The position numbers and the translations under genes are program-made. The notes beneath the pieces are model-generated. The model was not told the DNA's origin and searched no databases. It worked only from the letters and a program-made list of their open reading frames with translations. From assembly GCA_947476045.1 (NCBI GenBank), contig CANJNZ010000009.1, positions 9,564 through 73,563 on the forward strand: DNA of 64,000 bases, written 5' to 3'. This DNA comes from Chthoniobacteraceae bacterium. GTDB taxonomy: Bacteria; Verrucomicrobiota; Verrucomicrobiia; Chthoniobacterales; Chthoniobacteraceae. Positions within the stretch are counted from its first letter, which is position 1. Each line of letters starts with the position of its first letter. Of the stretch, positions 720-33,092 are shown piece by piece.

Positions 720-992
720 ATGGCTCAGGCGATCATGGATCCGGAAGAAGTGAGACGCTTTGCGAAGGAGATAAAGCGTTTCAATGACGACGTGCAGGCG
801 AAGGCGGCATCGCTACAGGCGCGATTCGCAGCACTGGGAAGCTCATGGCAGGATCAAGAGGCGGAAAAATTTGCAGAGGAGTTCATCACCACGATGAAGG
901 TGCTGAAAAAATTCGTGGAGATCGCTGAAAAACACACGCCGTATCTTTTGCGCAAAGCGCAGCGAATCGAGGAATACCTGGACCAGCGTTAA
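720..992 (+). CDS. WXG100-like small helical protein (90 aa)
   Basis: ATG at 720. Two predicted long helices flank 'GSS-W-Q-D' (W codon 846-848) where the WXG turn would sit, followed by 'EAEKFAEEF'. The next gene starts 3 nt after the stop. Confidence 0.6.
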   Translation: MAQAIMDPEEVRRFAKEIKRFNDDVQAKAASLQARFAALGSSWQDQEAEKFAEEFITTMKVLKKFVEIAEKHTPYLLRKAQRIEEYLDQR

Positions 993-995
993 AGC

Positions 996-1514
996 ATGGC
1001 AACTCAAGCCAAAGTCACCTCGCTGGATGCACTGGAAACCTTCCGGGCCGCGCTGATCGTTTTTTTGACCAAGGCGCGCCGGGCACTGGATGAAGTGAGC
1101 GACGAAATCCGGCGCACAAGACAATGGCTGGAAAATGACCGGAGACCGCACTGGGAGGGGAAAATCCGAAAGCGGAGGCGCGCGCTGGAACAGGCGCAGC
1201 AGGAGTTGTTCAGCGCGAGGCTGTCGGAGTTTATGGAGGCGAGCACACGGCAACTCGCCGTGCGCAAGGCAAAGCTCGCGATGGCTGAAGCGGAGGAGAA
1301 ACTGCGCGCTGTGAAATTCTGGAATCAAAAATACGACAGCGCAGCCGACCCCCTTGTCAAGGGGATCGAGGGATTGCGTCATTTTCTCGAACACGACATG
1401 CCCGGCGCTGTCTCATATCTCGTGCAGGTCCAAAAGATTCTCGAATCATACACTGTGACCTCGCATTCCAACGCTGGCGGGCAGCCGGGCAACGAGGAGA
1501 TTTCAAATTCATGA
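996..1514 (+). CDS. helical protein (172 aa) with a central W-E-G motif; possible extended WXG100-like or accessory protein
   Basis: ATG at 996. Charged, heptad-like sequence. 'PH-W-E-G-K' lies at nt 1152-1160 between predicted helices. The stop overlaps the next start (ATGA at 1511-1514). Confidence 0.5.
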   Translation: MATQAKVTSLDALETFRAALIVFLTKARRALDEVSDEIRRTRQWLENDRRPHWEGKIRKRRRALEQAQQELFSARLSEFMEASTRQLAVRKAKLAMAEAEEKLRAVKFWNQKYDSAADPLVKGIEGLRHFLEHDMPGAVSYLVQVQKILESYTVTSHSNAGGQPGNEEISNS

Positions 1515-1723
1515 GCACCAAGGGCAGCGCCTCAAATTTAATACAGGCCATGAAAAACCTCTCAGCGGAATGGCAGCGGTTGAAAGAAGTCTGGCGTGAC
1601 GGGAAGAGCGTGGAGTTTGAACAGAAGTATCTTGATAATTTGCCCGGCGATGTTTCCCAGGCAATCGAGTCGATGGAGGAAGTGGATGCGCTTCTCAAGA
1701 AAGTGAGGGGAGACTGTGAGTAA
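1511..1723 (+). CDS. WXG100-like small helical protein (70 aa)
   Basis: 'EV-W-R-D-G-KSVEFEQKY' (W codon 1592-1594) parallels 'SS-W-Q-D-QEAEKFAEEF' in the 90-aa protein. There is an 8-nt overlap with the GTG start of the ATPase gene. Confidence 0.5.
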   Translation: MSTKGSASNLIQAMKNLSAEWQRLKEVWRDGKSVEFEQKYLDNLPGDVSQAIESMEEVDALLKKVRGDCE

Positions 1724-4700
1724 CAACGCTGACCTGCGCGTAAGCCGGAGTCTCGAACTTCTCGGACGACTCAAGCAGACGGTGGTGGATTTCACGAAAA
1801 AGGAGGAGGATATACTGCGGGATCTTCGCGCGAGGCAACACACCCTGACACGAAAACAATATGAAGCCACGAGCAAGGCAGACGAACGATTCGCGTCACA
1901 GATAAACGAAATCGAGACTGCTTACCGACATGAGGCGCAACGGATTCGCTCACTGCACGACGGACGAATTGCGCGAATCCAGCGCCTGCAAGCTGCTGCG
2001 CTCCGCAAACTGCCAGGGCGCGCTCAAGAGGCGAAGGGAAACTGGCTGGGGCGATTGCAAATGCGGCAACTCAATGCGGACCGCACCAGAACGGCGGAAC
2101 TCGAACAAGCCGACGCGGCAGCGGCGGAGTTCGCCGCGCGACTGGCGAAAAAACACGAGGCACTCGTGAGTGTCGAACACTGCGCAGACAGTTTTTTCAA
2201 CGGCTACGGCGCATTCGGAAAATTACTCCATCGCAAATCAAACACCGCCTGCGAGGGCAATCTCGATGCTCTCTACAACGAATTACGCAATCAACTGAGC
2301 AAGGCAGACGGGCAACTCGTGGCGTTTCGCAGATTCCTGCTGCCGCGCATTTTCGCCGCGATACCGCTGGCGGTAATTCTGCCCATTATCATCACAGCAG
2401 CGGTGATCACTACCTTCGTATTCGGAGTTCACACCACTGCAGGCATGGCATTCGGAATCGGCGGCGGTGTGTTTTTACTAGCCGTCGTCTGTGTGTTGCA
2501 CATCGCAGGAAAACGTCAGTCCGCATCGACCGCTGAAGCCGCGACCCAAGCTCTCGCGGAAGCCCGCCAAACTCATGAAGCCTGCGCAACGACATCTGCG
2601 GCAGAGCACAAACACGAGCGCGAGCGCATTGAGTCGGAATACGAACATACAAAGGCGGAGATTGCTGAACAATGGGGCGAAGCAGGCGGCATCGAAGCAA
2701 CATTTGAGAAGGCAGCGCGCGACAAACTGAACATTCAAGTGCCGCGCGTTCTGGCGAAAAATCAGGAACTCATGCGCCCGAAACTCCAGCACATTGAAAA
2801 CGAGCGCTCCGTGCAACTGGAGCGCATTCAAGAAGAGGCAGGCACTATCAGAGAAAGGCTCACTACGACTCACGGGGCAGAAACCCACGCACTTGAAGCA
2901 GAACGGATATCACGCATGGAGGCATTGAGCGCGGATTGGACGAGTGCAATTTCCCCTCTGCATGAAGCCATCGCGGCGATGAACACCGCCACCTCCGCAA
3001 GCTTCCCTGCGTGGAATTCCGGGTTCGTGGAAAATTGGCAGCCTTCAAAATCATTCACCCCCACTGCGAAATTCGCGCAGCTCGAACTCGATCTCTCGGA
3101 GGGGATGCCAAAGCAGCTCGCAATGCCCGGCGGCACTCATGTCTCCATCCCGCTGACGCTCGCATTTCCGCAAGAGGGATCGCTGCTATTTGAAACAAAC
3201 GACTCCGGCAACAGCACTGTCCTCGGCACGCTGAACAATATCATCCTGCGCCTGCTCTCGACGACTCCACCGGGCAAACTCAGTTTCACGATCATTGATC
3301 CCGTCGGGCTTGGTCAAAGTTTTGCAGGACTGATGCATCTTTCCGACTACGAGGAGAGCCTCATCAACCGACGCATCTGGACGCAGCGCGACCAAATCGA
3401 CGAGCGACTCGCGGAGTTGAGCGAGCACATCGAGAAGGTCATCCAGATGTATCTACGCAACGAATACGAAACGATCACGCAATACAACGAGCAGGCCGGG
3501 AGCGTGGCGGAAAAGTATCACTTTCTCGTCGTGTCGGATTTTCCTGCGGGCTTCAGCGAAACCACAGCGAAGCGACTGCAAAGCATCGCCACGAGCGGCG
3601 CACGCTGCGGCGTATTCACGCTCATTCATTGGGATCAGCGCCAGCCGTTGCCCGATGGTTTTGCAGCGGATGAACTCCGCAAGAGCAGAGTTTGCATCCG
3701 CTCTGAGAACGGCAGCCTCGTGCTCTCTCGCGAGCAGGCGCAAACCGGAGCCACTCTTGTTTTCGATCCTCCACCCCAGCCGGAACTCGCCGCTGAACTC
3801 ATTCATAAAATCGGTAAAAGCAGTGTGGATTCGAACCGCGTCGAAGTGCCCTTTGCGCAAATCGCACCACGATCTGAAGAAATGTGGACGGGCGATACCA
3901 CGCAGGAATTGCGGATCGCCATCGGGCGAACCGGCGCGACGAAAATGCAGATGCTCGCCATCGGCAAGGGCACGCGCCAGCACGCGCTCTTCGCGGGCAA
4001 GACCGGCTCCGGCAAATCCACGCTCTTCCACGTCATCATCACCAATCTCGCGCTCGCATGCTCTCCCAATCAGGTCGAGTTTTACCTGATCGATTTCAAA
4101 AAGGGCGTGGAGTTTAAATGCTACGCATCAAAACGACTGCCGCACGCGCGCGTTGTCGCCATCGAAAGCGACCGTGAGTTTGCGCTCAGCGTGCTCCAGC
4201 GCGTGGACGAGGAACTCAAGCGGCGCGGCGACATCTTCCGCAAAATGGGCGTGCAGGATATCGCCGGCTACAAAAAGGCGGGAGGCACGGAACCGATGCC
4301 ACGCTCGCTGCTGCTCATTGATGAGTTTCAGGAATTCTTCGTGGATGACGACACCATCGCGCAAACTGCATCGCTGCTGTTCGACCGCATCGTGCGTCAG
4401 GGCCGTGCGTTTGGCATTCATGTGCTGCTCGGCTCGCAGAGTCTTGGCGGCGCGTATTCGCTCGCTCGCGCGACGCTCGGCCAGATGGTCATCCGCGTCG
4501 CGCTGCAATGCAATGAGGCTGACGCCTATCTCATCATGGACGACAGCAACTCCGCGCCGCGCCTCCTCTCGCGCCCCGGCGAAGGCATCTACAACGACGC
4601 GGGCGGTGCGCTCGAAGGGAATAGTCCGTTTCAAGTCGTCTGGCTTCCCGATGACGAGCGCGACGAGTGGCTCGATAAAGTCAGCGCCCTCGCCGCTCAA

Positions 4701-5579
4701 CACCACGACAAGCACCCCAGCCCCATCGTCTTCGAGGGCAATGCGCCTGCCGATCTTCGCGAAAACGATCTCCTCAGCGCCGCATTCGCAACAGTGCCCA
4801 CAAAAACGCCGCACGCGTCGCGCTGCTGGCTCGGTGCGCCGAATTCGATCAAGGGCCCGACTGAGGTTGTCTTCCGCCGGCAAAGTGGAAATCACCTGCT
4901 CATCGTCGGACAGCGCGAAGAGGCTTCGCTTTCCATCATCGGCGTTTCGATGCTCGCGCTCGCCGCGCAGCATCCTGTCGGCACGGCAAAATTCGTTCTG
5001 CTCCACGGCGCAAATCCCGGCTCGCCGGATGAAGAATTCATCGGACGAATCGCAGCCGCGATTCCGTATGAAGTCAAAATCGCACGAGGAAACGACATCG
5101 CGGAGGTGATGAATGAAATCGCTGCGACGCAGAAGGCACGCGCCTCCGGAGAACAAAACGAATATTCACCGAGCGTGTTCTTTTTCATCCACGGTCTGCA
5201 CAAATTCAAAAAGCTCCGCCACGAAGACGACTTTTCTTTTACATCCGGCGACAGCGAGGCGAGTCCCGGCTCACAATTCAACGACATCATTACCGAGGGC
5301 AGCGCGCACGGCATCCATATCATCGCCACGGTGGACACCTACAATAACGTGAACCGTGCAATATCGCGAAAAGCGCTGACGGAATTTGAAATGCGTGTCG
5401 TTTTCCAAATGGGCGCGAATGACTCCGCGAGCCTCATTGATTCGCCGAAGGCCAGCACGCTCGGTCTGCACCGCGCGCTCTATTACAATGAGCAGGAAGG
5501 GACGCTCGAAACTTTCCGCCCCTACGCAACGCCGGACTCCGAGTGGATCCGTGCGACTGCGGAAAAGCTCGCGCGCTAA
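1716..5579 (+). CDS. FtsK/SpoIIIE-family membrane ATPase, EssC/EccC-like (three P-loop modules, only the middle one canonical)
   Basis: 1287-aa ORF with GTG at 1716. aa 1-205 are coiled-coil-like. Two hydrophobic helices span aa ~207-265 (nt ~2334-2510), followed by a second coiled-coil and then three FtsK-like modules. The middle module has Walker A 'GKTGSGKST' and Walker B 'LLLIDEFQEF'. The flanking modules have degenerate loops ('NDSGNST'/'FLVVSDF' and 'VGQREEAS'/'VFFFIHG'). Confidence 0.85.
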   Translation: MSNNADLRVSRSLELLGRLKQTVVDFTKKEEDILRDLRARQHTLTRKQYEATSKADERFASQINEIETAYRHEAQRIRSLHDGRIARIQRLQAAALRKLPGRAQEAKGNWLGRLQMRQLNADRTRTAELEQADAAAAEFAARLAKKHEALVSVEHCADSFFNGYGAFGKLLHRKSNTACEGNLDALYNELRNQLSKADGQLVAFRRFLLPRIFAAIPLAVILPIIITAAVITTFVFGVHTTAGMAFGIGGGVFLLAVVCVLHIAGKRQSASTAEAATQALAEARQTHEACATTSAAEHKHERERIESEYEHTKAEIAEQWGEAGGIEATFEKAARDKLNIQVPRVLAKNQELMRPKLQHIENERSVQLERIQEEAGTIRERLTTTHGAETHALEAERISRMEALSADWTSAISPLHEAIAAMNTATSASFPAWNSGFVENWQPSKSFTPTAKFAQLELDLSEGMPKQLAMPGGTHVSIPLTLAFPQEGSLLFETNDSGNSTVLGTLNNIILRLLSTTPPGKLSFTIIDPVGLGQSFAGLMHLSDYEESLINRRIWTQRDQIDERLAELSEHIEKVIQMYLRNEYETITQYNEQAGSVAEKYHFLVVSDFPAGFSETTAKRLQSIATSGARCGVFTLIHWDQRQPLPDGFAADELRKSRVCIRSENGSLVLSREQAQTGATLVFDPPPQPELAAELIHKIGKSSVDSNRVEVPFAQIAPRSEEMWTGDTTQELRIAIGRTGATKMQMLAIGKGTRQHALFAGKTGSGKSTLFHVIITNLALACSPNQVEFYLIDFKKGVEFKCYASKRLPHARVVAIESDREFALSVLQRVDEELKRRGDIFRKMGVQDIAGYKKAGGTEPMPRSLLLIDEFQEFFVDDDTIAQTASLLFDRIVRQGRAFGIHVLLGSQSLGGAYSLARATLGQMVIRVALQCNEADAYLIMDDSNSAPRLLSRPGEGIYNDAGGALEGNSPFQVVWLPDDERDEWLDKVSALAAQHHDKHPSPIVFEGNAPADLRENDLLSAAFATVPTKTPHASRCWLGAPNSIKGPTEVVFRRQSGNHLLIVGQREEASLSIIGVSMLALAAQHPVGTAKFVLLHGANPGSPDEEFIGRIAAAIPYEVKIARGNDIAEVMNEIAATQKARASGEQNEYSPSVFFFIHGLHKFKKLRHEDDFSFTSGDSEASPGSQFNDIITEGSAHGIHIIATVDTYNNVNRAISRKALTEFEMRVVFQMGANDSASLIDSPKASTLGLHRALYYNEQEGTLETFRPYATPDSEWIRATAEKLAR
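3996..4022 (+). other. Walker A (P-loop) coding segment of the only canonical ATPase module
   Basis: GGC AAG ACC GGC TCC GGC AAA TCC ACG encodes GKTGSGKST (aa 761-769), in frame with the 1716 start. Confidence 0.9.
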
Positions 5580-6277
5580 ATCACAGGCCGGTCTTTTCCG
5601 GCGCGTATGTCGAGCACCTGCTCGGCGAGCGGCAGGTCGCGGGGAAATGTGATTTTGAAATTGTAGTCGTCGTTTCGCAGCAATGCGACGCGTTTGCCGA
5701 GTTTCTGCACCGCGCTCACTTCGTCGGTCACGAGTTCGTTGCGCGCCATGAGTGCAGCATAAGCCTGGAGGATGAGCGCGCTGCTGAAAACTTGCGGCGT
5801 TTGCATCGCCCACAGGTTTTCGCGCTCCACGCTCTCGGTCACCATTTGTTCGTAGGATGCGCGCTTGACCGTGTCCGGCACCGGCGCGGCGCAGCAGGCG
5901 GAGCCGTGTTTTTTTGCAAGTTCGATGCAGTCGCTGATCAACTTCGGTGTCACCAGCGGACGCGCACCGTCGTGAATCGCCACATACTGGCTGCCTTCGC
6001 TTTTCACCGCCTTGAGTCCATTCCATACTGAAAGATGCCGCTCAGCGCCGCCGGCAACAACGCTGCGCATCTTCGTGAGTTTTTCCGCGCGCACGAGTTT
6101 CTCCACGTCGGGGATGAGTTCCTCGCGTGTGACGACGAGTATTTCATCCACGCTCTCGCAGTTCTGGAACGCCGCGAGCGACCAGTAGAGCACGGGTTTG
6201 CCGTGCAGCAGCGTGAAAATCTTGTCGAGCCCCATGCGGCGACTGCTCCCGGCGGCGACGATGATGGCGCTGATCAT
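5576..6277 (-). CDS. ispD: 2-C-methyl-D-erythritol 4-phosphate cytidylyltransferase
   Basis: The N-terminus 'MISAIIVAAGSSRRMG.DK' is the IspD nucleotide-binding signature. Length is 233 aa. The stop overlaps the convergent ATPase gene stop. Confidence 0.9.
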   Translation of the reverse strand: MISAIIVAAGSSRRMGLDKIFTLLHGKPVLYWSLAAFQNCESVDEILVVTREELIPDVEKLVRAEKLTKMRSVVAGGAERHLSVWNGLKAVKSEGSQYVAIHDGARPLVTPKLISDCIELAKKHGSACCAAPVPDTVKRASYEQMVTESVERENLWAMQTPQVFSSALILQAYAALMARNELVTDEVSAVQKLGKRVALLRNDDYNFKITFPRDLPLAEQVLDIRAGKDRPVI

Positions 6278-6726
6278 GGGAGCAATTTTCCGACAACGGC
6301 TGAAAGTGTGCGACCATCCGCGCGGCCTGCTGCGCGCTCGCCTGCTGCTTTCATCACCGCGCCCATTTGCGCTTTCGATGTCGCGCCGAGTTCAGTGATG
6401 ACTGCGCGGACAAGCGCCTCGATTTCCTCCTGCGAAAGCGCCTTCGGCAGATAAGCGGAAAGCACATCAGCCTCGCTGCGCTCCTTCGCCACGAGGTCTG
6501 CGCGACCTCCTTTTTCGAAGCTCTCGATGCTGTCCTGCCGCTTTTTGAGTTCCTTGCGGATGATGGCCATCGCCATCGCATCATCCACCGCTTCATCGGC
6601 AATCCCCTTCTCCATCGCCGTCGCTTTCATTGCGCTTTTCAGACCGCGCAGCACGAGGAGGCGGTCAGCAGCGCGCGCACGCATGGCGTCTTTGATGTCG
6701 TTATCGAGTTGGGAAAGCAGGCTCAT
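6274..6726 (-). CDS. GatB/YqeY domain-containing protein
   Basis: Trimmed to the internal ATG at 6726 ('MSLLSQLDNDIKDAMRA...'). The 150-aa product matches the YqeY pattern. The upstream part of the listed ORF overlaps purU and is R/G/A-rich noise. There is a 4-nt overlap with the ispD start. Confidence 0.85.
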   Translation of the reverse strand: MSLLSQLDNDIKDAMRARAADRLLVLRGLKSAMKATAMEKGIADEAVDDAMAMAIIRKELKKRQDSIESFEKGGRADLVAKERSEADVLSAYLPKALSQEEIEALVRAVITELGATSKAQMGAVMKAAGERAAGRADGRTLSAVVGKLLP

Positions 6727-6758
6727 GCGTTGGACACTAGCGGCGGCGGGGGGCGGCC

Positions 6759-7613
6759 TCAATCTCGAAAGACGACTGTGCGTTTGCCGTGCAGAAGCAC
6801 GCGATCCGCGAGATGCCAGCGCACTCCACGTGAAAGCGCCTGCCGTTCGCAATCGCGACCCAGCCGCAGCAAATCCTCCGTCGAGTGAAAGTGCTCCACG
6901 CGGATTACCTCCTGTTCGAGAATCGGCCCGGCATCCAGTTCCGCCGTCACGTAATGGCAGGTAGCGCCGATCAATTTCACCCCGCGCTCCCACGCCCGCT
7001 GATACGGATTTGCCCCTACGAACGATGGCAGGAACGAGTGATGGATATTGATCACGCGACCCTCCCAACGCGCGCAAAGATCCTCAGGCACCACCTGCAT
7101 GTAGCGCGCGAGCACCACAAGATCCGCGCCTGCCTCCTCCCACAGCCGCTCGATCTTTGCGAAAGCCGCGGTCTTTCCCTCCGCGCTCACCGGCACGTAG
7201 TGAAAAGGAATCCCCTCCCGCTCGACGACTTCGCGAAAGTCCTCGTGGTTCCCAATCACACACGCGATATCGCAGCCCAATTCCCCCGCCCTCCAGCGCC
7301 AGAGCAATTCCGAAAGACAATGCCCAAGCCGCGAAACCATGAGCACCGCGCGCATCTTGTCGCCCTCGCGGCGGATGCTCCATTGCGCGCCCAGTTCCGC
7401 AGCGACTGGCGCAAATACCGCGCGCAATTCTGCCAGCGGCATCCGCAGCGTCTGCGTCTCGATTGCCATCCTCGTGAAAAACCAGCCCGCCTCCAAATCG
7501 GTGAACTGATGCACCTCATCAAGATTTCCTCCGTGCTCTGCAATGAAAGCCGTGAGCCGAGCAAGCAGTCCCACGCGATCGGGACAGGAGAGCTTTAATA
7601 GTGTGGCGGGCAT
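6759..7613 (-). CDS. purU: formyltetrahydrofolate deformylase
   Basis: The N-terminal ACT-like segment 'LLKLSCPDRVGLLARLTAFI' is followed by a formyltransferase core ('VLARYMQV', 'INIHHSFLPSF'). I preferred the ATG at 7613 over the listed TTG at 7649. Confidence 0.85.
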   Translation of the reverse strand: MPATLLKLSCPDRVGLLARLTAFIAEHGGNLDEVHQFTDLEAGWFFTRMAIETQTLRMPLAELRAVFAPVAAELGAQWSIRREGDKMRAVLMVSRLGHCLSELLWRWRAGELGCDIACVIGNHEDFREVVEREGIPFHYVPVSAEGKTAAFAKIERLWEEAGADLVVLARYMQVVPEDLCARWEGRVINIHHSFLPSFVGANPYQRAWERGVKLIGATCHYVTAELDAGPILEQEVIRVEHFHSTEDLLRLGRDCERQALSRGVRWHLADRVLLHGKRTVVFRD

Positions 7614-7833
7614 GGCAGGAGTGAAAGCGGACGATGACCGCGCGGGCAACCCGTTTTGTGTGGTAGAGCGAAAGGCTGCGTCGATTTCCTTTCAGACGGC
7701 CAGCGTCCCAACATCGGCGGCATCAGCAGGCGGAACCCGCGCAATTCACCTGCATGTCTCATACGCAGCAAAGAGAGTGTTGTCGTGCGTCTTTCCTTTT
7801 CCGTGCGGCCCCGTTAGGATTCCTCCTCAAATC

Positions 7834-10317
7834 GTGTCAGAAAACGCTGAACCAACAACGCCCAAGCCCGCGGCAGCCATCAAGCCCGTCGCGCCCGCTG
7901 AAAAACGTCCGATCCGTAAACGCGGATTTGTCGCAAAACTTCGTCTGCTCTTTTTGTGGCTCCTGCTATTCGTCTGCATTGCGGTGCAGGCCCCCGTCTT
8001 TCCCTGGATTGTTCGACTCGTCGTCCACATCGAGGCGTGGCGAAAAGGTTCGGAGATTAGCATCGGTTCAGTCGAGGGAAGTATTTTTGACCCCATCGTC
8101 CTGAGAGACACCATCTTCACCTACCACTCCGAAACCGGGGCAGTGACACGCATGGAAGCACGGCGCGCACGCGCAACATTTGCATGGAGCAATGTCTTCC
8201 CAGAGCCCGTCAGCAACTGGGTGCGTAACAGCGCCAGAGCACTCGGTCTTGCCACCATCGGACGCAACAACGTCTGGTGGCAGCGACTTGAACTCGATGG
8301 AGTCAGCGCCAAACTCACACTCCCCACCGCGCTCACGAAGGAACCGGCCACTTCGCGTCGCTTGCTGCGCTCACAGTTCGGCGAAGGTATGCTCCACCCG
8401 CCGCTTTATCTCTCTGTGCGCGATACGGAGTTTGTCATCGAGCGCGGCAGCGATTTTCTCCATGCGATTGGACTGCGGTTTTCGCTCAGTGAAATTGAAC
8501 CCGGCAGCGCACGCGCCTCGCAACTCAGTTGGAACCTCGGCGGGCTCACCAAAAGTTTCCGCGACTTGCATGGCAGTTCCACTCTCCAGCAGTCGCGCGC
8601 AACCATCGCCGGCCTCTCACTCGCGCCGGATGTCCGTGTGGAATTCTTTTCAGTAAATCTCAGCGACCTCGCAAAGGGCCGACTCACCCTTGCAACCCAG
8701 CTTGCTGCATTCGGCGGCACCGTGAACGCGGAGGCCGAAACCGCACCGCACGGACGGGAACTGCACTTCGATGCAGATGGCACTTTTGAAAACATCAATG
8801 TCAGCGGTCTCGCCACTTTTCTCGGCCTCAGCGAGGCAGCCGGAGGGTTGGTCAAAAATGGAAACTTCATTTATCGCGGTGCCCCCCGCGATCCCGCGCA
8901 CGCCGAAGCCCGGCTCAATTTTGAAGCAGGCAATTTCCAATGGGAAACACGCCAGTGGGACTCACTCACCCTGCGACTCTCCCTACTCGATCAACGGCTC
9001 CAAATCCCCGAATTGAAACTCCGGCAGGGCGTAAATCAGCTCGGCCTCAGCGGCAGCATGGCGTTGCCGAAAACCGGCACGTCGTGGTGGCAGCGGCAGT
9101 TCGACTTCAAAGTGGATGCGGACATCCACAACCTCACAGACCTCTCTGCGCTCGTGCTTCCGGATTTCAAATTTGCAGCGGGGCAACTCTTCGTTCGTGG
9201 CTCTGTCAGCGGCTCCGGAGCCGAAGCCCCGGCTATTCCGACCTTTGACGGGCAGCTTATTTTCAGCGGCAGCAACATCAAATGGCGCACCTCACCACTC
9301 GACGTGCTCAACGCAGCACTCGTCTTCCGGGGCCACGAACTACAGGTGATCAACGCCCAACTCCTGCATGGCGACGACTACTTTCGAGGCGTGGGCCGTA
9401 TCAGCCTATCCGGCGATGGCGGCTACGAGGGTGTCATACGAACCTCAGTGCGCGAACTCGCGATTTACCAGCCCCTGCTCGCTGCACCCGTGCTGCCGCT
9501 GCCCCTCGCCGGCAGTGCCCTCATCGACTGGCGCGGGAACGGCCTGCGGCAAAAACACGAAGGCACATTCACTGCGCAGTTGGAGAAAGTTCACACCCTG
9601 GGCGGCCCGGGCCTGCAAGCCACGCATCCGCTCAATGCCAGCGTTTCCGGGAGCTACGCTGGCGAACAGATGCAGTTTGATAAATTCGAACTCAGCGAAG
9701 GCTCTACCACACTCAGCGCAGCCGTAGGCATCGGACCCAGCGCAGTGAATCTCCGTTCCCTACGCGTGCAACACAAGGGCCAGCCATGGCTTCAGGGCGA
9801 TGCGATGCTTCCGCTGGATCTCTGGCAGCGCTGGCCGGATGTCGATTTCTCACACCTCCTCAACAACGACACCGTCGCCCGTGTAAATCTCACCGCCACC
9901 GACCTTGGACTGCGGGAAACCGCGCTGCTCACAGGCATCGAGTGGCCACTCGCCGGCACGCTCAACGGCACACTGACAGCCGACGGCGCGCTCAAGTCCC
10001 TCAAGCTTGGCGGCGCACTCACACTCGCCAAAGGCACACTACCGCTGAATTGGCACGGCACTACCGTCACCGACGTGAACAGCAGCTTCACGCTCGACGA
10101 GTCCGTCGTCACACTCACCAAAGCCAGTGGCCGCTACGCAAGCGGAGCATTCACCATGGAGGGTAAACTGGACCTCTCCAGTGCCCGTAAACCGCTGATC
10201 GAATCAACCGGCGCCGGCACCAACAACGGCCAGCCCTTCAGCTTTAAACTCAGCGGCCCCGCAGAAAAACCAGTCCTAACCACCGAAGGTCCCGCCCCTT
10301 TCGCTCCTCCGCAGTAA
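7834..10317 (+). CDS. large membrane-anchored beta-rich protein, TamB/AsmA-like (tentative)
   Basis: A single N-terminal hydrophobic anchor 'LRLLFLWLLLFVCIAV' is followed by ~750 aa of beta-rich sequence. The C-terminus recalls the TamB/DUF490 pattern. The start is uncertain: the listed 7543 start overlaps purU, and GTG 7834 is one in-frame candidate. Confidence 0.45.
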   Translation: MSENAEPTTPKPAAAIKPVAPAEKRPIRKRGFVAKLRLLFLWLLLFVCIAVQAPVFPWIVRLVVHIEAWRKGSEISIGSVEGSIFDPIVLRDTIFTYHSETGAVTRMEARRARATFAWSNVFPEPVSNWVRNSARALGLATIGRNNVWWQRLELDGVSAKLTLPTALTKEPATSRRLLRSQFGEGMLHPPLYLSVRDTEFVIERGSDFLHAIGLRFSLSEIEPGSARASQLSWNLGGLTKSFRDLHGSSTLQQSRATIAGLSLAPDVRVEFFSVNLSDLAKGRLTLATQLAAFGGTVNAEAETAPHGRELHFDADGTFENINVSGLATFLGLSEAAGGLVKNGNFIYRGAPRDPAHAEARLNFEAGNFQWETRQWDSLTLRLSLLDQRLQIPELKLRQGVNQLGLSGSMALPKTGTSWWQRQFDFKVDADIHNLTDLSALVLPDFKFAAGQLFVRGSVSGSGAEAPAIPTFDGQLIFSGSNIKWRTSPLDVLNAALVFRGHELQVINAQLLHGDDYFRGVGRISLSGDGGYEGVIRTSVRELAIYQPLLAAPVLPLPLAGSALIDWRGNGLRQKHEGTFTAQLEKVHTLGGPGLQATHPLNASVSGSYAGEQMQFDKFELSEGSTTLSAAVGIGPSAVNLRSLRVQHKGQPWLQGDAMLPLDLWQRWPDVDFSHLLNNDTVARVNLTATDLGLRETALLTGIEWPLAGTLNGTLTADGALKSLKLGGALTLAKGTLPLNWHGTTVTDVNSSFTLDESVVTLTKASGRYASGAFTMEGKLDLSSARKPLIESTGAGTNNGQPFSFKLSGPAEKPVLTTEGPAPFAPPQ

Positions 10318-22917: not shown

Positions 22918-23493
22918 ATGAAAATTTTCTCCACATTACTTGCTGCGGTTTCACTCTTCACAACTCCGCTGTTTGCTCAGGCGCCTGTTCCCATCACGGC
23001 GAAAAATGTGAAAATCGATAAAATCATGCCCTCGGTTATTACTACCCCGGAGTTCGTAATCAAAGGCACGACCGACAAGCGGGCTGAGTATCTCAAATGG
23101 TTTGAGATAGAAGTGGAGTTTGAAGTGGAAGGCGTCGAGATGGTGGATGAATTGACGTTCAAATACCTTGCCGAAATCAACGGTAAGTTGCTCCCCGGTG
23201 AAATCACACATGTGAACATCCCAAAAGGAAGGAACCATTTTTCCGTGATGTATATCTCCCCCCGCTCGCTGGACCGCTTGACGGACGGCAAGCAGCTGAA
23301 TCAAGGGATGATTGGCAACATTTGGATTGAAATCGAAAAACAGGGGCAGGTTCTTGCCAAAAAATCATCCCAACAGAAACCGCCGCCAAATTTACAACGT
23401 ATGAATGGTCTCATGGTGCCAAAATCTGAAACGCCCTTTCAGGTGCTGTGGTGGGATCGCTACGAAGCAGTCAAACCCGGCGTGAGCCGATAA
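22918..23493 (+). CDS. secreted protein, first gene of the pilus-like cluster (positional equivalent of Amuc_1102)
   Basis: Sec signal 'MKIFSTLLAAVSLFTTPLFAQA'. 191 aa. The call rests on position in the cluster only. Confidence 0.5.
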   Translation: MKIFSTLLAAVSLFTTPLFAQAPVPITAKNVKIDKIMPSVITTPEFVIKGTTDKRAEYLKWFEIEVEFEVEGVEMVDELTFKYLAEINGKLLPGEITHVNIPKGRNHFSVMYISPRSLDRLTDGKQLNQGMIGNIWIEIEKQGQVLAKKSSQQKPPPNLQRMNGLMVPKSETPFQVLWWDRYEAVKPGVSR

Positions 23494-23519
23494 TCTGGAA
23501 ATTTTTCGCAGGCAACCGA

Positions 23520-25232
23520 ATGGCCGCACCAAACAGCATCCTCGCCCTCAATCTCGGCACGCAGACTATCAGTCTGGCCGAGTTTCAAACGAACCCGAGC
23601 GGGGGCATTGTGCTTGTTCGTTACAAGCAGGCCGAAATTCTGGGCGACCCCGCAGCTGATGCTACACGCGTCGCACAGACCAAGCTGCAAATACAACAAT
23701 TAGTCGCGGAATTTGGACTGAAGAAACAGCGGGTAAACTACGCGATCGCTTCACATACGATTTTTACGCGCCCCGTAAGGCTGCCGGTCGTCGAAGACGC
23801 CTCGCAGGTGGAGCAGATCGTCGCTTTTGAAGCAGCGCAAAACGTCCCCTACCCGATTGATCAAGTCGTGTGGGACTGGCAACTCCTGGACGAGGGCAAG
23901 GGAGGGCAGATGGAAGTCATCCTCGCGGCCATCAAGTCGGACTTGCTCGATGACATCAATGACGCTGTGCAAAATGCCGGCCTGCGAACCAGCGTCGTCG
24001 AGATAGCGCCAATGGCCCTCTACAACGCGCTCCGCTATAATTACGCAGATGCGGACGGCTGCACCTTGTTGGTCGATATCGGTTCGCGCACGACGAACCT
24101 GCTCTTTTGCGAACCGGGTAAAATTTTTCCGAGACGCCTGAATATCGGCGGCAGCACAATCACTACTGCGATTGCGAAAGACTTTGGAATGTCTTTCACG
24201 GAGGCCGACAAGCGCAAGGCGGACGATGGTTTTGTGAGTTTGGGCGGCAGCTACGCGGAGCCCGACGATGCAGAAACGGCGCGCATCTCGAAAATCATCC
24301 GCAATCAAATGACGCGCCTGCATCAAGAAATTGCACGCAGCATCACCTTCTATCGCAGCGAGCATGGAGGCTCGCAGCCCGAGCGGGTGCTGCTTTCCGG
24401 CTGCACGGCCTCACTTCCTTACATGCGGGAGTTTTTCCAGGAAAAATTCCCAAGCATGGATGTGGAATACTTCAATCCTCTGCGCAATGTCTCCGTCTCC
24501 AGCACGCTTGATGTCGAGGAAGTCGGACGAACCGCGCACATGCTCGGCGAACTCGTAGGTCTCGCGCTGCGCGGAGCGGTAAGTTGCCCGATGGAACTGA
24601 ATCTCCGCCCGGCAAGCGTCACCACGGCAGACCGCACGGCAGCCCAGCGCCCGTTTCTCATCGCAGCAGGCGTGTGTGTTCTGACCATGCTCGCTGGCTG
24701 GTGGCAGTATTTTGAACGCGCTGCAGATACGGCAACAGAGGTCACCGAAAAGATAAGCGCTCAATCCCAGCCACTTGAAGCCGAGGAAGCCAAAATCAAA
24801 AGCGCTCTAGCGGATATCGACACGCTGAAAAACTCGGTCAAACCCCTGCAAAAGGCGATCGAAGAGCGGGAATACTGGGTCAAAGTCATCAGTGACATCG
24901 GCCAGCGACTGCCCAAAGACTACATTTGGATCACGTCCTTTGAGTTGCCGCCGAGGGAGGAAAAAGAAACGCCCAAGCAGCCTGAAAAAGGCAAGACCAA
25001 GGACACACCTCCAGTGATTCTGACAGTGAAAGGACTCTATCTCAGCAAGGATGCCGGGAATAATGAGCGCACAAAAATAGTGGACGAATTTCTCAAAAAT
25101 CTCGGCGATTCTCCGTATGTCGAACCACCCAAGGAAGAGGCGGAGATCATCCGGGGAAATGACGATACCGCGCACTGGGCATTCCCATACACATTCCCGC
25201 TCAAACTTAAAAAACCGATCGATTTGAAATGA
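23520..25232 (+). CDS. PilM-like actin-fold protein fused to a PilN-like transmembrane/coiled-coil segment (Amuc_1101-like)
   Basis: ATG at 23520. 'ILALNLGTQTISLAEF', 'LLVDIGSRTTNL' and 'VLLSGCTASLP' are actin/FtsA/PilM-type phosphate and adenosine motifs. The TM helix 'FLIAAGVCVLTMLAGWW' at aa ~395 is followed by ~170 further residues. Confidence 0.8.
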   Translation: MAAPNSILALNLGTQTISLAEFQTNPSGGIVLVRYKQAEILGDPAADATRVAQTKLQIQQLVAEFGLKKQRVNYAIASHTIFTRPVRLPVVEDASQVEQIVAFEAAQNVPYPIDQVVWDWQLLDEGKGGQMEVILAAIKSDLLDDINDAVQNAGLRTSVVEIAPMALYNALRYNYADADGCTLLVDIGSRTTNLLFCEPGKIFPRRLNIGGSTITTAIAKDFGMSFTEADKRKADDGFVSLGGSYAEPDDAETARISKIIRNQMTRLHQEIARSITFYRSEHGGSQPERVLLSGCTASLPYMREFFQEKFPSMDVEYFNPLRNVSVSSTLDVEEVGRTAHMLGELVGLALRGAVSCPMELNLRPASVTTADRTAAQRPFLIAAGVCVLTMLAGWWQYFERAADTATEVTEKISAQSQPLEAEEAKIKSALADIDTLKNSVKPLQKAIEEREYWVKVISDIGQRLPKDYIWITSFELPPREEKETPKQPEKGKTKDTPPVILTVKGLYLSKDAGNNERTKIVDEFLKNLGDSPYVEPPKEEAEIIRGNDDTAHWAFPYTFPLKLKKPIDLK

Positions 25233-26185
25233 GCTGGCTTTCCAAAAATAAATTTCTTGCTGGATTTGGTGCCGCGATGCTTCTAGGCGTTGGCGGACTG
25301 GGCTACCTCACCTACTCCGCTATGGATCGCAGCAGCTCTGCAGAAAGCGATTTCGAAGGCGCACTCGCAAAACTAAAAGGTCTGCAGGATGGACACCCCT
25401 ATCCCGAAAAAGGAAACCGGGAGAAACTCGTCGCGCAAAAAGACGCACTGAACGAAAAAATCGCCTCGTTTCAAAAACAGCTCGCGGATTCCGTTCTGCC
25501 TGTCGAGCCTCTGACTCCCACCGACTTCCAAGACAAACTCAAGGAAACCGTCGCCCGGGTCACTGCCAAAGCCGGAGGTGATGCGCACCTCAAACTGCCG
25601 GACAAATTTTACATGGGCTTTCCGGAATATTCGAGCAAACCGCCGGAGAAGGCAGCAGCAGCCTTGCTTGGCCGCGAACTCGTCGCATTTGAATCGATCA
25701 TCAATCTCATGCTCGCCGCCAAGGACGTGGAGCTTAAGGAATTTTCCCGTGAAGAATTAAAAGAGGAAAAGGACAACGAAAAGCCAAAGCCAGGAGCGAA
25801 GAAAAGCGCGCAAACCGAACGGAAACTTGTTCAACACTCAGGTTTCACGGTGAAGTTTGAATCAAGCGATGCAGCGTTTCGCACCATCTTAAACGGCATC
25901 GTTGGGAACAAAGAGCAATTCTATATCGTCCGGAGGATCAAGGTGAACAGCACCATGACGCAAGCCCCTCAAAAAGCGAACAGCCCCGCCCCAAACACAC
26001 CCTCCACAAATCCATCCACCCCTGCTCCAGGCCCCGCCGTTCCTCCGCCACAAGCCCCGTCGCAACGTCTCGAATACATATTTGGAACAGAACGTGTGGA
26101 TGTCGCCTTGGAAATAGAAATGGTGGACTTCGCAAAGCCCGAAGCGCCCGTTAAATCCGTAAAAAAAGAGAAGGAGGACAAGTGA
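25229..26185 (+). CDS. Amuc_1100-family pilus-like protein (PilO-position bitopic membrane protein)
   Basis: 318 aa. N-terminal anchor 'FLAGFGAAMLLGVGGLGYL', a helical region, a P/A/S/T-rich linker and a C-terminal beta segment. Length, architecture and several short stretches (for example 'TPTDFQDKLKE', 'FYIVRRIKV') resemble my memory of Akkermansia Amuc_1100. There is an ATGA overlap with the upstream gene. Confidence 0.6.
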   Translation: MSWLSKNKFLAGFGAAMLLGVGGLGYLTYSAMDRSSSAESDFEGALAKLKGLQDGHPYPEKGNREKLVAQKDALNEKIASFQKQLADSVLPVEPLTPTDFQDKLKETVARVTAKAGGDAHLKLPDKFYMGFPEYSSKPPEKAAAALLGRELVAFESIINLMLAAKDVELKEFSREELKEEKDNEKPKPGAKKSAQTERKLVQHSGFTVKFESSDAAFRTILNGIVGNKEQFYIVRRIKVNSTMTQAPQKANSPAPNTPSTNPSTPAPGPAVPPPQAPSQRLEYIFGTERVDVALEIEMVDFAKPEAPVKSVKKEKEDK

Positions 26186-26188
26186 GCC

Positions 26189-27259
26189 ATGGAATGGATT
26201 AAGAAAAACCCGGCCCAACTGATTCTTGCGCTCGTCGCCGCAGGTTCCCTCGCCTCTGCCATCCTGCTTTACACAAAAGAGGATGACTTCAAGAATGCTT
26301 TCAACGCATTCAACGTCTCGCCCAACAAGGACAATAAAATCCCAAACCTCCATGTTGAGAATATCACGGCAGCCGAGAAAGCGATTAGCACACCGGCGCT
26401 CTGGAGTCCTGGAAACAACAAAGATACAGCCGCTCTTTTCGTCCCCAAAAAATACGTCTTGAAAGACGGCGCTCTCGTCAGGCCGATGAACTGGACTTTC
26501 AACCCTCCCGTTCCCAACGCATGGCTCGAAAAATACGGCTTCGACTACCTCAATCCTGGACTGCTCGACGAGGATCCTGACAAAGATGGATTCAGCACTC
26601 TCCTGGAGTTCAAGGGACTCGACGCACAGTCGCACCTCGATATGGCGGGCCAGTCAGTGCTTGGCAAAGACGGCAAAGCGCTGACCGATGATTCGACCGA
26701 CCCGACCGATCCAAAATCGCATCCTCCTTACCACACACGTCTCTCGCTCAAAAAAATCGAGTTAATCCCTTTCCGCCTTCGATTCATGACCTATGACACC
26801 AATAGAGCAGGCAGGGTCGATAGCGTGCAGATCAATACACTGGATCGCGGAAACAAATCCATGTTCGTCACGCTCGGCGAAGACATACCCGGCACACGTT
26901 TCAAGACATTGACCTTCGAGAAAAAAGAAGTGCCCGATGTTGACAACACAAAGAAAGACGTTTCCGAACTCACCATCATCAACAACGAAACAAAGGAAAC
27001 TCTCGTTCTCGTCCTCGGCATCGTGCGCGACTCGCCCGAGAGTTACATCGTCCTCCAATATCACTGGGTGGGTGCAGACGGACAAAAGACGCCCGACATG
27101 AATTTGAAGAAAGGAATCACATTCAAGCTTCCCCCCGACAATGACAGCACCTACAAGGTCATTGACATCAAAGCACCCGATCCGCAAAAGGGCCAACTTG
27201 GAGAAGCAAAAATTCAGATCCCCAACGGGGAAACGATCACCTTGCACACTTCAAAGTAA
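26189..27259 (+). CDS. membrane-anchored pilus-like system protein (Amuc_1099-position, PilP-position)
   Basis: N-terminal anchor 'LILALVAAGSLASAILLY'. A thrombospondin-type-3-like acidic motif 'DEDPDKDGFS'. 356 aa, with a 3-nt gap from the upstream gene. Confidence 0.5.
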   Translation: MEWIKKNPAQLILALVAAGSLASAILLYTKEDDFKNAFNAFNVSPNKDNKIPNLHVENITAAEKAISTPALWSPGNNKDTAALFVPKKYVLKDGALVRPMNWTFNPPVPNAWLEKYGFDYLNPGLLDEDPDKDGFSTLLEFKGLDAQSHLDMAGQSVLGKDGKALTDDSTDPTDPKSHPPYHTRLSLKKIELIPFRLRFMTYDTNRAGRVDSVQINTLDRGNKSMFVTLGEDIPGTRFKTLTFEKKEVPDVDNTKKDVSELTIINNETKETLVLVLGIVRDSPESYIVLQYHWVGADGQKTPDMNLKKGITFKLPPDNDSTYKVIDIKAPDPQKGQLGEAKIQIPNGETITLHTSK

Positions 27260-27334
27260 CCCCCGGCGCTAGAAAACTCCTCAGTTCACAGCCAACCAAC
27301 AAACACTTTAAACCGAAATAACCAACACACGCCC

Positions 27335-29955: not shown

Positions 29956-30558
29956 GTGCCAGTCATCGGCCTCACGGGTGGCATCGCAACTGGCAAAAGC
30001 ACTTTTGCCAGCGCGCTGCTCCGGGAGTTGCCGATGGGGCATTTTGATTCCGACCGCTGCGTGCACGACCTGCTCGCCGCAGACAATCAGATACGCGACT
30101 CCATAGTAGCCGCTTTCGGCCCATCCGTCTGCGATCAGGCAGGGCGGCCCGAGCGAACCGCACTGCGAAACATCATTTTTAACGACGAAAAACGGCGCAG
30201 AACGCTGGAAAGCATCCTGCACCCGGCCGTCCACGCCCAGTGGAAGGCACTCGCCGAAGAAGCCCGACGCCGGGAAACATGGTTGCTAGTGGACATCCCA
30301 CTGCTCTATGAAACCCAAGCCGAAGGTGAATTTGACCGCGTTATCGTGGTCGCCAGCTCAAAAAAAACTCAAATCGAACGCCTGACACAAGAACGCAGGC
30401 TTGCACCTGAGTTGGCAGAAAAGATAATCGCCTCACAGTTCGACCTCGAGGCGAAGACACAGAAAGCAGAACACGTAATTTGGAATGACAGCACCCGCCG
30501 AAACCTTGACGGACAAGCCCGACTCCTTGCCGATTGGCTCAGAGTCCGCTTCTCCTGA
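29956..30558 (+). CDS. coaE: dephospho-CoA kinase
   Basis: 'VIGLTGGIATGKST' P-loop. 200 aa. The GTG start lies 2 nt after the secretin stop. Confidence 0.9.
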   Translation: MPVIGLTGGIATGKSTFASALLRELPMGHFDSDRCVHDLLAADNQIRDSIVAAFGPSVCDQAGRPERTALRNIIFNDEKRRRTLESILHPAVHAQWKALAEEARRRETWLLVDIPLLYETQAEGEFDRVIVVASSKKTQIERLTQERRLAPELAEKIIASQFDLEAKTQKAEHVIWNDSTRRNLDGQARLLADWLRVRFS

Positions 30559-31993: not shown

Positions 31994-33092
31994 AAAACCA
32001 AGTCAACTGCGCGACGGACATTCACCCTCTCAAATGGTCCCGTTGACCGACACCGCCTCCGGCCTCGCCGACGCGCTGCCCGCCATCGCAGCGCAGCAGC
32101 GCATCGCCGTGGATACCGAGGCCGACTCGCTCCACTGCTATTTCGAAAAACTCTGCCTCATCCAAATCACAGTTCCAGGTCATGACTTCCTCATTGATCC
32201 GCTCGCTGGTTTCGACCTCACACCACTTTGGGAGTCATGGTCGGGGAAAGAACTCATCTTCCACGGAGCAGACTACGATCTCCGCCTGCTCCGCCGCACC
32301 GGCTGCCCAAGACCCGCACGCATTTTCGACACAATGATCGCCGCACGGCTCTGCGGGCTGAAGGAATTCAGCTATGCGGCGCTGATGGAAAAATACTTCC
32401 AGCTTCCCATCGCCAAGGCATCGCAAAAAGCAAACTGGGCGCGCCGTCCGCTTTCGCCGCAGATGATGGAATACGCAGTCAACGACACGCGTCACCTCGC
32501 CGGGCTCGCCGACATTTTGAGCGCTGAACTGGACCGGCAAAATCGCCGCGTGTGGTTCGACCAGCTCTGCGACCGCGCCATTCGCTCCGCTGAAGTGGAC
32601 AAGGAAATTGACCCCGACCAGCTCTGGCGTGTCCCCGGCAGTGGCCACCTTCGCGGGCGCGCAGCGGCAATCTTCCGCGAGCTGTGGAAATGGCGCGATG
32701 AAGAAGCCCGCCGCCTCGACAAACCCACATTCCACATCTGCAACAGCGACCTCCTCGTGCAAGCGGCAGTCGCTTTTGACGCAGGCGAAACTTTTGAAAT
32801 CCGCCACCTGCGCGGTCCGCGCGAAGCAAAGTATTTTGCAGCAGCCCAGCGCGGAGTTGAACTACCCGAATCCGAGTGGCCGAAATTTATCCGGGCACCG
32901 CGCCTCCGCCCGACCACAGCGCAGTTGAAACGTTTCGACGAGCTGAAGAGCCTCCGCGACAAAGCCGCCGCTGAGCATCATCTCGATCCCTCGCTCATTG
33001 CCCCGAAAGCCACCTTGGAAGGTCTGGCATTCCGCCCGGAGGAGACTCAGGCAAAACTATTGCCCTGGCAGCGTGAACTGATGGGCCTTTAG
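31986..33092 (+). CDS. rnd: ribonuclease D (DEDDy 3'-5' exonuclease plus HRDC)
   Basis: 'IAVDTEADSL', 'HGADYDLRLL' and 'YAVNDTRHL' are Exo I-III motifs. The start is GTG 31986 (overlapping the rho stop) or ATG 32034. Confidence 0.85.
   Translation: MVEKPSQLRDGHSPSQMVPLTDTASGLADALPAIAAQQRIAVDTEADSLHCYFEKLCLIQITVPGHDFLIDPLAGFDLTPLWESWSGKELIFHGADYDLRLLRRTGCPRPARIFDTMIAARLCGLKEFSYAALMEKYFQLPIAKASQKANWARRPLSPQMMEYAVNDTRHLAGLADILSAELDRQNRRVWFDQLCDRAIRSAEVDKEIDPDQLWRVPGSGHLRGRAAAIFRELWKWRDEEARRLDKPTFHICNSDLLVQAAVAFDAGETFEIRHLRGPREAKYFAAAQRGVELPESEWPKFIRAPRLRPTTAQLKRFDELKSLRDKAAAEHHLDPSLIAPKATLEGLAFRPEETQAKLLPWQRELMGL

Follow-up and report, generated by a model that had tools for sequence, protein, structure and literature searches.

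The closest described relatives of the system considered here are operons in which a solo WXG100 protein accompanies an EssC- or YueA-like ATPase, and it is with these that we compare a four-gene module at positions 720 to 5579 of a 64,000-nucleotide stretch (hereafter, the window) of contig CANJNZ010000009.1 from a Chthoniobacteraceae bacterium. Footnote 6 to Table 1 of Zhang et al. (2012, Biol Direct; PMC3482391) reports exactly this ATPase with solo WXG proteins and explicitly lists Verrucomicrobia among the lineages that have it. Anantharaman et al. (2012) is cited for this operon type by Bell et al. (2024; PMC11090510) and by Uchiyama et al. (2016), where HP0062/HP0066 bear the name "WXG100 secretion system." Sutcliffe (2011) is likewise cited for WXG100 proteins in Verrucomicrobia (PMC6471051). 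A recent survey of type VII secretion system (T7SS) variants covers Gram-positive bacteria only (PMC11217815).

A second form of the operon was described by Bell et al. (PMC11090510) in Type III-A CoCoNuT/TerY-P defense islands. There, an EssC-like ATPase with three domains, the central one active, has an N-terminal coiled coil of >200 residues and no transmembrane (TM) helices, and it is accompanied by two WXG100 proteins, a fusion of a coiled coil with a restriction endonuclease (REase), and a DNA-mimic-like protein.

The module studied here is, in our judgment, probably a stand-alone, chromosomal, membrane-anchored member of the operon family that combines a solo WXG100 protein with a three-module, middle-active EssC/YueA-like ATPase, and as such a stripped-down relative of the T7SS. 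That its parts are homologous to T7SS components we regard as highly probable from their sequences. An earlier note on this DNA had proposed a minimal type VII-related module in a diderm, and at the level of homology this stands: p1 (see below) passes the WXG100 profile, the ATPase is T7SS-like, and the small genes are conserved beside it, so that none of the contrary outcomes foreseen in that note was found. The novelty is modest. We found no paper that tests these systems experimentally or that treats the Verrucomicrobial clade in detail, in keeping with the earlier note, but the operon type itself was already known bioinformatically (PMC11090510 and PMC3482391).

The module comprises four open reading frames (ORFs), all on the + strand and all where the earlier note had placed them: p1 (720-992, 90 residues), p2 (996-1514, 172 residues), p3 (1511-1723, 70 residues), and the ATPase gene (1716-5579, 1,287 residues from a GTG start). 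The spacing given there was also reproduced, with a 3-nt gap between p1 and p2, an ATGA overlap of p2 and p3 at 1511-1514, and an 8-nt overlap of p3 and the ATPase gene at 1716-1723. The sequences of p1, p2, and p3 all lack an N-terminal signal peptide. A scan of species-representative genomes, one per species, returned at least 471 relatives of the ATPase, and all neighborhood counts below refer to the best 80 of these loci.

The WXG100 protein and its anchored ATPase

In the Pfam check that the earlier note had suggested, p1 matched the WXG100 profile PF06013 at 42.5 bits, above the curated cut-off of 27.3, with profile positions 4-83 of 86 covered; p2 and p3 gave no match. The NCBIfam model TIGR03930 scored p1 at 33.4 bits, short of the 44.85 set as its cut-off. 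A profile of 27 p1 orthologs matched H. pylori HP0062 (3fx7/2gts; E = 2e-11), B. anthracis EsxB (1e-7), and S. aureus EsxA (6e-4), HP0062 being the closest solved relative. HP0062 is an antiparallel hairpin dimer with "WRD" at its bend and is encoded near an FtsK/SpoIIIE gene (PMC3397514). By homology to 3fx7, p1 is expected to fold as a helical hairpin of this HP0062/EsxA type.

At the expected (p1) or modeled (p3) hairpin turn, where W-x-G would stand, both p1 (W43-Q-D, nt 846-854) and p3 (W28-R-D-G, nt 1592-1603) carry W-x-D, as HP0062 does with its WRD, and the two share the longer pattern W-x-D-x5-F-x3-[FY], as had been pointed out in the earlier note. Residues W43, D45, F51, and F55 of p1 are invariant across about 75 loci, and the invariance of W43 and D45 defines a W-x-D subfamily. 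Members of the p1 cluster carry the label "YukE" at the Joint Genome Institute. The C-terminus of p1 (A80-QRI-E84-EY-L87-DQR) fits in part, as A-xxx-E-xx-L, the pattern HxxxD/ExxhxxxH reportedly found at the C-termini of WXG100 proteins (Poulsen 2014), but the chain stops before the last hydrophobic position. The export signal YxxxD/E is absent from this C-terminus, as read directly from the sequence.

The ATPase belongs to the FtsK-HerA superfamily and is related to EssC and EccC. Its NCBIfam scores were 118.5 bits for EccCa, 110 for EccCb, and 90 for EssC, and its best PDB matches were T. curvata EccC (4nh0), EccC5 (7np7), and YukB (9qks), with module B of the ATPase aligned to the D1 domains. 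The protein begins with a cytoplasmic and poorly conserved region (residues 1-205; 1716..2330, up to the TM hairpin at 2331) that is probably a coiled coil; the only matches it gave were weak ones of coiled-coil type, to the ZorA tail, LmuB, and LeoBC. The two TM segments that the earlier note had seen correspond to one hydrophobic hairpin (residues 206-266; 2331..2513), its two helices having hydropathy peaks of 2.68 and 2.33. Because the loop between them is short and uncharged (GVHTTAG, 7 residues) and basic residues lie on both flanks, both ends of the hairpin should be cytoplasmic. The hairpin is present in 22 of 22 aligned family members and absent from the homologs on plasmids and in defense islands. 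The stalk that follows the membrane anchor (residues 275-470; 2538..3125) is homologous to the N-terminal coiled coil of these anchor-less homologs, the family profile aligning to a plasmid-borne Caballeronia ATPase from profile position 366 and to a Rhodococcus one from position 309, so that the region from 309/366 to 470 corresponds to the N-terminal coil of the plasmid homologs. From this we infer that the stalk, too, is a coiled coil.

Three FtsK-like P-loop modules make up the remainder. Module A (residues 471-720; 3126..3875) is degenerate: it has no Walker A, the motif G....GK[ST] being absent, and scanned alone it scores 24.3 bits against Pfam FtsK_SpoIIIE (cut-off, 24), yet it is the best-conserved part of the ATPase and contains invariant alignment columns. 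Module B (residues 721-990; 3876..4685; 113 bits against the same profile) is predicted from its motifs to be the sole catalytic module, with Walker A GKTGSGKS at nt 3996-4019 and Walker B LLLIDE at nt 4308-4325, and each of the 22 aligned relatives has exactly one Walker A. Module C (residues 991-1287; 4686..5576) is a degenerate duplicate of B (blastp, 2.5e-8; hhalign, 87% probability, E = 4e-6) in which Walker A has become G-Q-R-E-E and Walker B FFFIHG. By analogy with the D3 domain of EccC, it is a candidate substrate-docking module.

The EssC/EccC-like multi-module ATPase of the earlier note is thus borne out in its homology and its multi-module build but not in its details. The module resembles the T7SSb (Ess/Yuk) of Bacillota in having a WXG100 protein of the homodimeric EsxA/YukE type, a two-TM ATPase with tandem FtsK-like modules, long helical-hairpin partners comparable to LXG/Lap-type substrates, and no signal peptides. 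It differs in that the ATPase has no FHA domain (its distant matches P0028-P0033 carry PF00498 and PF16697), one module fewer, and only the middle one active; in that EssA, EssB/YukC, EsaA/YueB, and EsaB/YukD were not found nearby; and in its diderm host. With the T7SSa (ESX), it shares WXG100 genes beside the ATPase gene, a catalytic module that aligns best with D1 of EccC (4nh0, 7np7), and a degenerate module ahead of the catalytic one, like the DUF domain of EccC. In contrast to the T7SSa, D1 has a single module after it, against two in EccC, a bicistronic EsxA/EsxB pair bearing a clear YxxxD/E is lacking, and EccB, EccD, EccE, and MycP were not found within 10 kb or as conserved neighbors in the 80 loci. 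The earlier note had seen no gene of the EccB/D/E, MycP, EssA/B, EsaA, or YukD type, and we likewise found none within 8-10 kb here and none as a conserved neighbor.

Membership of the FtsK-HerA superfamily, together with public annotations of some relatives as "DNA segregation ATPase FtsK/SpoIIIE," could also suggest a DNA translocase of the FtsK/SpoIIIE/TraB type that acts in chromosome segregation or DNA transfer. We consider this very improbable. The FtsK equivalog scores the protein at 29 bits (cut-off, 1566), against 90-118 bits for the T7SS ATPases. FtsK/SpoIIIE translocases have a single motor domain and a C-terminal gamma winged-helix domain, neither of which is found here, and the ATPase gave no Pfam match to FtsK gamma (PF09397) or FtsK alpha (PF17854), in which it differs from the true FtsK P0034. 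Three tandem modules, two of them degenerate, are instead a T7SS-type architecture, and the ATPase gene is always coupled to WXG100-type genes. Finally, no relaxase or mobile-element context was seen around the module among the 80 loci, and no relatives were found in viral contigs.

The two further hairpin proteins

In its AlphaFold2 model (predicted local distance difference test [pLDDT] score of 79.7), p3 (1511..1723, + strand) forms a short helical hairpin, with a helix at residues 4-28, a turn at 29-30, helices at 31-41 and 44-69, and W28-R-D at the turn. It has no significant match in Pfam or NCBIfam; its profile gave none against the PDB, and a fold search came back empty. Since the direct hhalign comparison of p3 with p1 was not significant (E = 0.13, with the Trp residues aligned), the link between them was made through reciprocal enrichment of sub-threshold matches. 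Among the 9706 ORFs of all loci, the top 20 non-self matches of the p3 profile are all p1-type, a class that makes up 0.8% of the set, and the sub-threshold matches of the p1 profile are mostly p3. The p3 profile also scores 18.3 bits against the WXG100 protein of Caballeronia. On the strength of the modeled hairpin, the shared motif, and these reciprocal matches, we conclude that p3 is best read as a divergent, N-terminally shortened WXG100 paralog.

The tail of p3, K-h-[RKH]-x-[DE]-C-[ED]-COOH, is nearly invariant in about 75 loci, including those in which p3 and the ATPase gene are separate. In the window, the last 10 codons including the stop (1694-1723) begin at residue 61; the Cys two residues from the end is kept in the non-overlapping loci too, and the 76-residue Caballeronia counterpart of p3 also has a Cys near its C-terminus. 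This residue could serve in docking, metal binding, or a disulfide.

The earlier note had credited all three small proteins with a WXG100-type turn, which applies to p1, more weakly to p3, and not to p2 (996..1514, + strand). The AlphaFold2 model of p2 (pLDDT, 86.6) is a single long antiparallel coiled-coil hairpin, with helices at residues 2-77 and 82-157, a turn at 78-81, and a disordered C-terminal tail. Its W53-E-G (nt 1152-1160) lies where the note had read it but falls in the middle of helix 1 and not at the turn, so p2 is not a WXG protein. That assignment was rejected also because p2 has no relatives in Pfam, NCBIfam, or the PDB (the last searched with the p2 profile as well) and scores a probability of 1% against p1 in hhalign. 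No nuclease domain was found in p2. Foldseek returned only generic coiled-coil hairpins for the model, all at E >= 0.02. These nonsignificant matches include YscO and HP0958, whose hairpins we take to bind inside or beside export ATPases. At 50% identity, the p2 family (E <= 1e-3) falls into 2348 clusters, of which the 150 best are all stand-alone proteins of 118-244 residues, and p2 is kept at the same position in about 75 loci.

Conservation, mobile relatives, and surroundings

The best 80 ATPase loci are almost all from Verrucomicrobiota, with one Phycisphaerales genome in addition, and their carriers include Chthoniobacter flavus Ellin428, Prosthecobacter, Luteolibacter, Haloferula, Roseibacillus, Limisphaera, and Methylacidiphilales. 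Conservation of the four-gene block in related genomes, a check proposed in the earlier note, was found far beyond chance: about 70 of the 80 loci have p1-p2-p3 homologs, in the same order, immediately upstream of the ATPase gene, and most of the others are contigs that end upstream. The minimal arrangement of a T7SS, a WXG100 gene adjoining an EccC/EssC-type ATPase gene, is accordingly present here and recurs at the same frequency. Even the overlap of p3 with the ATPase gene, at 8-14 nt, is conserved among loci.

No flanking gene is conserved across the 80 loci, the commonest neighbor family being a generic sensor protein in 8 of them. In a neighbor-joining tree of the ATPase, sequences of the Chthoniobacterales, Prosthecobacter, Limisphaerales/subdivision 3, and Akkermansiaceae types form separate groups, and the ATPase studied here is sister to a Chthoniobacteraceae sequence, so that an origin of the window within the Chthoniobacterales is probable. 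A tree that follows taxonomy points to mainly vertical inheritance, and because the module is also chromosomal and without conserved neighbors, it appears to be domesticated and not mobile. Carriage by phages was rejected on the lack of relatives in viral contigs.

The best-conserved component is p1, with identities of 53-91% (mean column identity, 78%) against 42-64% for the ATPase; such conservation across the phylum, higher than that of the ATPase, is unusual for a secreted effector. In three genomes, inserts of 0.7-5.9 kb separate p3 from the ATPase gene (L012, 6106-7965; L043, 2038-7965; L059, 7325-7992). The insert in L043 holds an HNH_2 endonuclease ORF on the opposite strand, and that in L012 holds a seven-transmembrane-type membrane protein on the opposite strand and an 87-residue ORF overlapping the ATPase start. 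No recognizable module component was found in the L012 and L043 inserts.

A tblastn search with the three-module part of the ATPase found full-length homologs on plasmids of Caballeronia, Rhodococcus, Deinococcus, and Helicobacter. On Caballeronia pSBC2-5 (L084), the gene order is VWA, WXG100, a coiled-coil-REase fusion (436 residues), a 113-residue protein, a 76-residue protein, and the ATPase (927 residues, no TM helices), followed downstream by CARF, VWA, PP2C, and kinase genes. The Helicobacter plasmid encodes a WXG100-like protein, an HNH nuclease, an SMI1/KNR4 immunity protein, a 77-residue protein, and the ATPase. The p1 profile matches the plasmid WXG100 genes at E values of 1e-24 to 1e-8 and the ATPase profile matches at 196-435 bits (for pSBC2-5, 1e-24 and 355 bits), and these shared matches, with the gene order, indicate a four-gene frame in common with the plasmid loci. 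The Rhodococcus (L085) and Deinococcus (L086) plasmids have their WXG100-type genes downstream, not upstream, of the three-module ATPase gene; those of Rhodococcus lie beside TerD and DUF475 tellurite-resistance-type genes, and a canonical Walker A is altogether missing from the Deinococcus ATPase.

The mobile forms carry a nuclease toxin at the position of p2, sometimes followed by an immunity gene. No homology of p2 to the coiled coil of the Caballeronia REase fusion or to the Helicobacter HNH protein was detected, the only match being a weak one of 12 bits to a Rhodococcus ORF, and the p2-toxin link is therefore positional only. These loci nevertheless raise the possibility that the module is the conserved core of a toxin delivery system. 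Polymorphic toxins that are encoded elsewhere in the genome and begin with WXG-type or coiled-coil domains would be its cargo, and p1-p3 would serve in targeting, in the manner of EsxA and the T7SSb Lap proteins. In the mobile homologs, the stretch between the WXG100 and ATPase genes does hold HNH or REase toxins, once together with a SUKH immunity gene, and Zhang et al. (2012; PMC3482391) report WXG-linked toxin domains with a phyletic spread that includes Verrucomicrobia. We think this reading improbable, however, because no toxin or immunity gene occurs in or beside the module in the 80 loci, no further p1-, p2-, or p3-like domain is found elsewhere in the 64-kb window, and the best p2-family representatives are short and stand-alone.

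Both described forms of the operon are close to this module and differ from it in particular ways. What it shares with the solo-WXG operon is an ATPase whose three FtsK/HerA modules include a single active one, in the middle, a solo WXG100 protein whose bend carries W-x-D (WRD in HP0062), and the lack of other T7SS components. Solo-WXG/YueA-like operons characteristically combine two WXG100-type proteins, one of them motif-less, with a coiled coil ahead of the ATPase modules; here the two proteins are p1 and p3, and the coil is the one predicted by homology to the plasmid ATPases. These papers, as far as their accessible text goes, call the operon a mobile element and describe neither the two extra partner genes nor a TM hairpin, whereas the module here is chromosomal and its tree follows taxonomy. 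The CoCoNuT/TerY-P module, exemplified by Caballeronia pSBC2-5, has the same order of WXG100 protein, coiled-coil protein, small motif-less second WXG100-like protein, and ATPase, and the same N-terminal coiled coil with three modules, the central one active. Its ATPase, however, has no TM helices; a D-ExK nuclease domain is part of its coiled-coil protein, after which comes a DNA-mimic-like gene; and it lies amid VWA, PP2C, kinase, and CARF genes, none of which occur here. With its TM hairpin, without a nuclease domain in p2, and without VWA, PP2C, or kinase neighbors, the module represents the stand-alone form and not the defense-island form. Relative to what the accessible descriptions contain, the particular features of the Verrucomicrobial clade are the TM hairpin set in the N-terminal coiled coil, a toxin-free partner with no immunity gene, and a chromosomal, domesticated state.

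A further explanation is that of a non-secretory machine. The module could be a membrane-tethered remodeling or sensing motor derived from a conflict or defense module, with the small proteins as cytoplasmic adaptors or regulators and not as cargo. The closest described relatives do lie in CoCoNuT/TerY-P islands and lack TM helices, PADLOC finds FtsK-type similarity of the ATPase to the defense proteins SspH (91.7 bits) and mad8, p1 is unusually well conserved, no channel or outer-membrane partner is linked to the module, and p2 resembles, without significance, the YscO and HP0958 hairpins. We nonetheless hold this explanation to be unlikely, if the most serious rival to export. Throughout the Verrucomicrobial clade, conservation of the TM hairpin is strict, and the module stands outside any defense island, with no nuclease, VWA, kinase, or phosphatase neighbors. 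To our knowledge, moreover, WXG100 proteins are exported in every characterized case. Membership in a defense system proper was rejected, as no PADLOC model matched p1, p2, or p3 and the ATPase matches reflect generic FtsK/HerA-domain similarity only.

Directly upstream of p1 lies an ORF fragment (3-620) that is the C-terminal part of a sigma-54 activator, in full a 450-residue NtrC-type response regulator on longer contigs of the same organism. The earlier note had remarked on this neighbor, and the adjacency is real, but the activator adjoins the module in this organism only and a functional link is unsupported. Sigma-54 control was rejected: no sigma-54 promoter was found within 2 mismatches in 621-719, upstream of p1, and the activator is not a conserved neighbor. 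A promoter and terminator scan gave nothing above chance. Two contigs (L081 and L082, 1-7500) whose module is 100% identical differ upstream of the activator, one having Fic/MerR and Fic_N genes and the other a phage-type integrase and a Prim-Pol/PolA giant gene, from which a strain-variable island would begin about 1.5 kb beyond the window start.

On the other side of the module, ispD, a YqeY/GatB-like gene, and purU (5576-7649, minus strand) converge on it, the ispD stop overlapping the ATPase stop region by 4 nt. An ORF of 924 residues (7543-10317), called TamB-like in the earlier note, has no Pfam match at E <= 1e-5. Farther along, a type IV pilus-like cluster (23448-29953) encodes a PilM-type ATPase-fold protein (594 residues), two ORFs without Pfam match, and an 872-residue TPR-secretin fusion. 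This PilM-to-secretin cluster and the Verrucomicrobiota affinity of the relatives agree with the outer membrane that the earlier note had ascribed to the host; Verrucomicrobiota are established diderms. At 30485-33092, the gene for an N-terminally extended Rho termination factor (502 residues) overlaps by 8 nt the one after it, which encodes an RNase D-like 3'-5' exonuclease/HRDC protein.

Export or adaptation to another role

Judged from sequence, the module most likely serves to export proteins across the inner membrane, although the chance that it actually secretes we put at about even. Toxin-immunity pairs such as those of the mobile homologs normally imply export. Members of the FtsK-HerA superfamily assemble as hexamers, and a plausible mechanism can be drawn from this and from the features described above. 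The four genes, with their observed overlaps, would be co-expressed and translationally coupled. By homology, p1 would form an antiparallel four-helix bundle like that of HP0062 or EsxA, either as a homodimer or with p3, while p2, as a hairpin of ~110 Å, would be a co-substrate or adaptor and may pair with the coiled-coil stalk of the ATPase. The ATPase, as a hexamer, would be anchored in the inner membrane by 12 TM helices, two from each protomer, with three stacked rings hanging from the coiled-coil stalk and, as the motifs predict, only the middle ring hydrolyzing ATP. EsxB reportedly docks on D3 of EccC (Rosenberg et al. 2015), and recognition may by analogy involve the degenerate module C and the invariant tail of p3 or the conserved tail of p1. 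The p1/p3 bundle, perhaps with p2, would then be driven into the periplasm through or alongside the hexamer.

Several observations weigh against export. Secretion by an operon of this type has been demonstrated experimentally in no organism, and the neighborhoods here and in the 80 loci point to no further membrane or outer-membrane component linked to the module. The periplasmic loop of the ATPase would be only about 7 residues long. That p1 is better conserved than the ATPase would be no less expected of a structural or regulatory subunit than of a secreted product. The relation of p3 to WXG100 proteins is weakly indicated, by sub-threshold matches, and no homology could be demonstrated between p2 and the coiled-coil portion of the toxin fusions. 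For the defense-island relatives, which have no TM helices, Bell et al. suspect "a different mechanism" (PMC11090510).

A bolder form of the export reading is that the module is a self-sufficient minimal type VII machine, in which the hexamer itself would be the inner-membrane channel that exports helical hairpins to the periplasm, and that it has become fixed in Verrucomicrobiota and some other bacteria of the Planctomycetes-Verrucomicrobia-Chlamydiae (PVC) group for a non-toxin envelope function. This we offer tentatively, as a possible but doubtful proposal.

On the export reading that we favor, the module of Verrucomicrobiota has lost the toxin and immunity cargo of its mobile relatives, and this loss, combined with vertical inheritance, suggests that its present role is probably a conserved envelope or housekeeping function and not interbacterial warfare.

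How a T7SS ATPase moves folded helical dimers across a membrane, and which accessory proteins are essential to this, are matters of debate, and one ATPase with three small helical proteins would offer a clean minimal model for T7SS-type translocation. The module could also settle whether the WXG100/EssC-type modules of outer-membrane bacteria, noted in 2011-2012, secrete. With cultured carriers such as Chthoniobacter flavus Ellin428 and Prosthecobacter, the question is directly testable. If the module is indeed a self-sufficient export machine, it would be the simplest natural system in which to model T7SS translocation and the first shown instance of T7SS-type export in a classical outer-membrane bacterium. 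Verrucomicrobiota are abundant in soil, freshwater, and the gut, and the retention of the module across this phylum, stripped of toxins, suggests an unrecognized core function in the PVC cell envelope.

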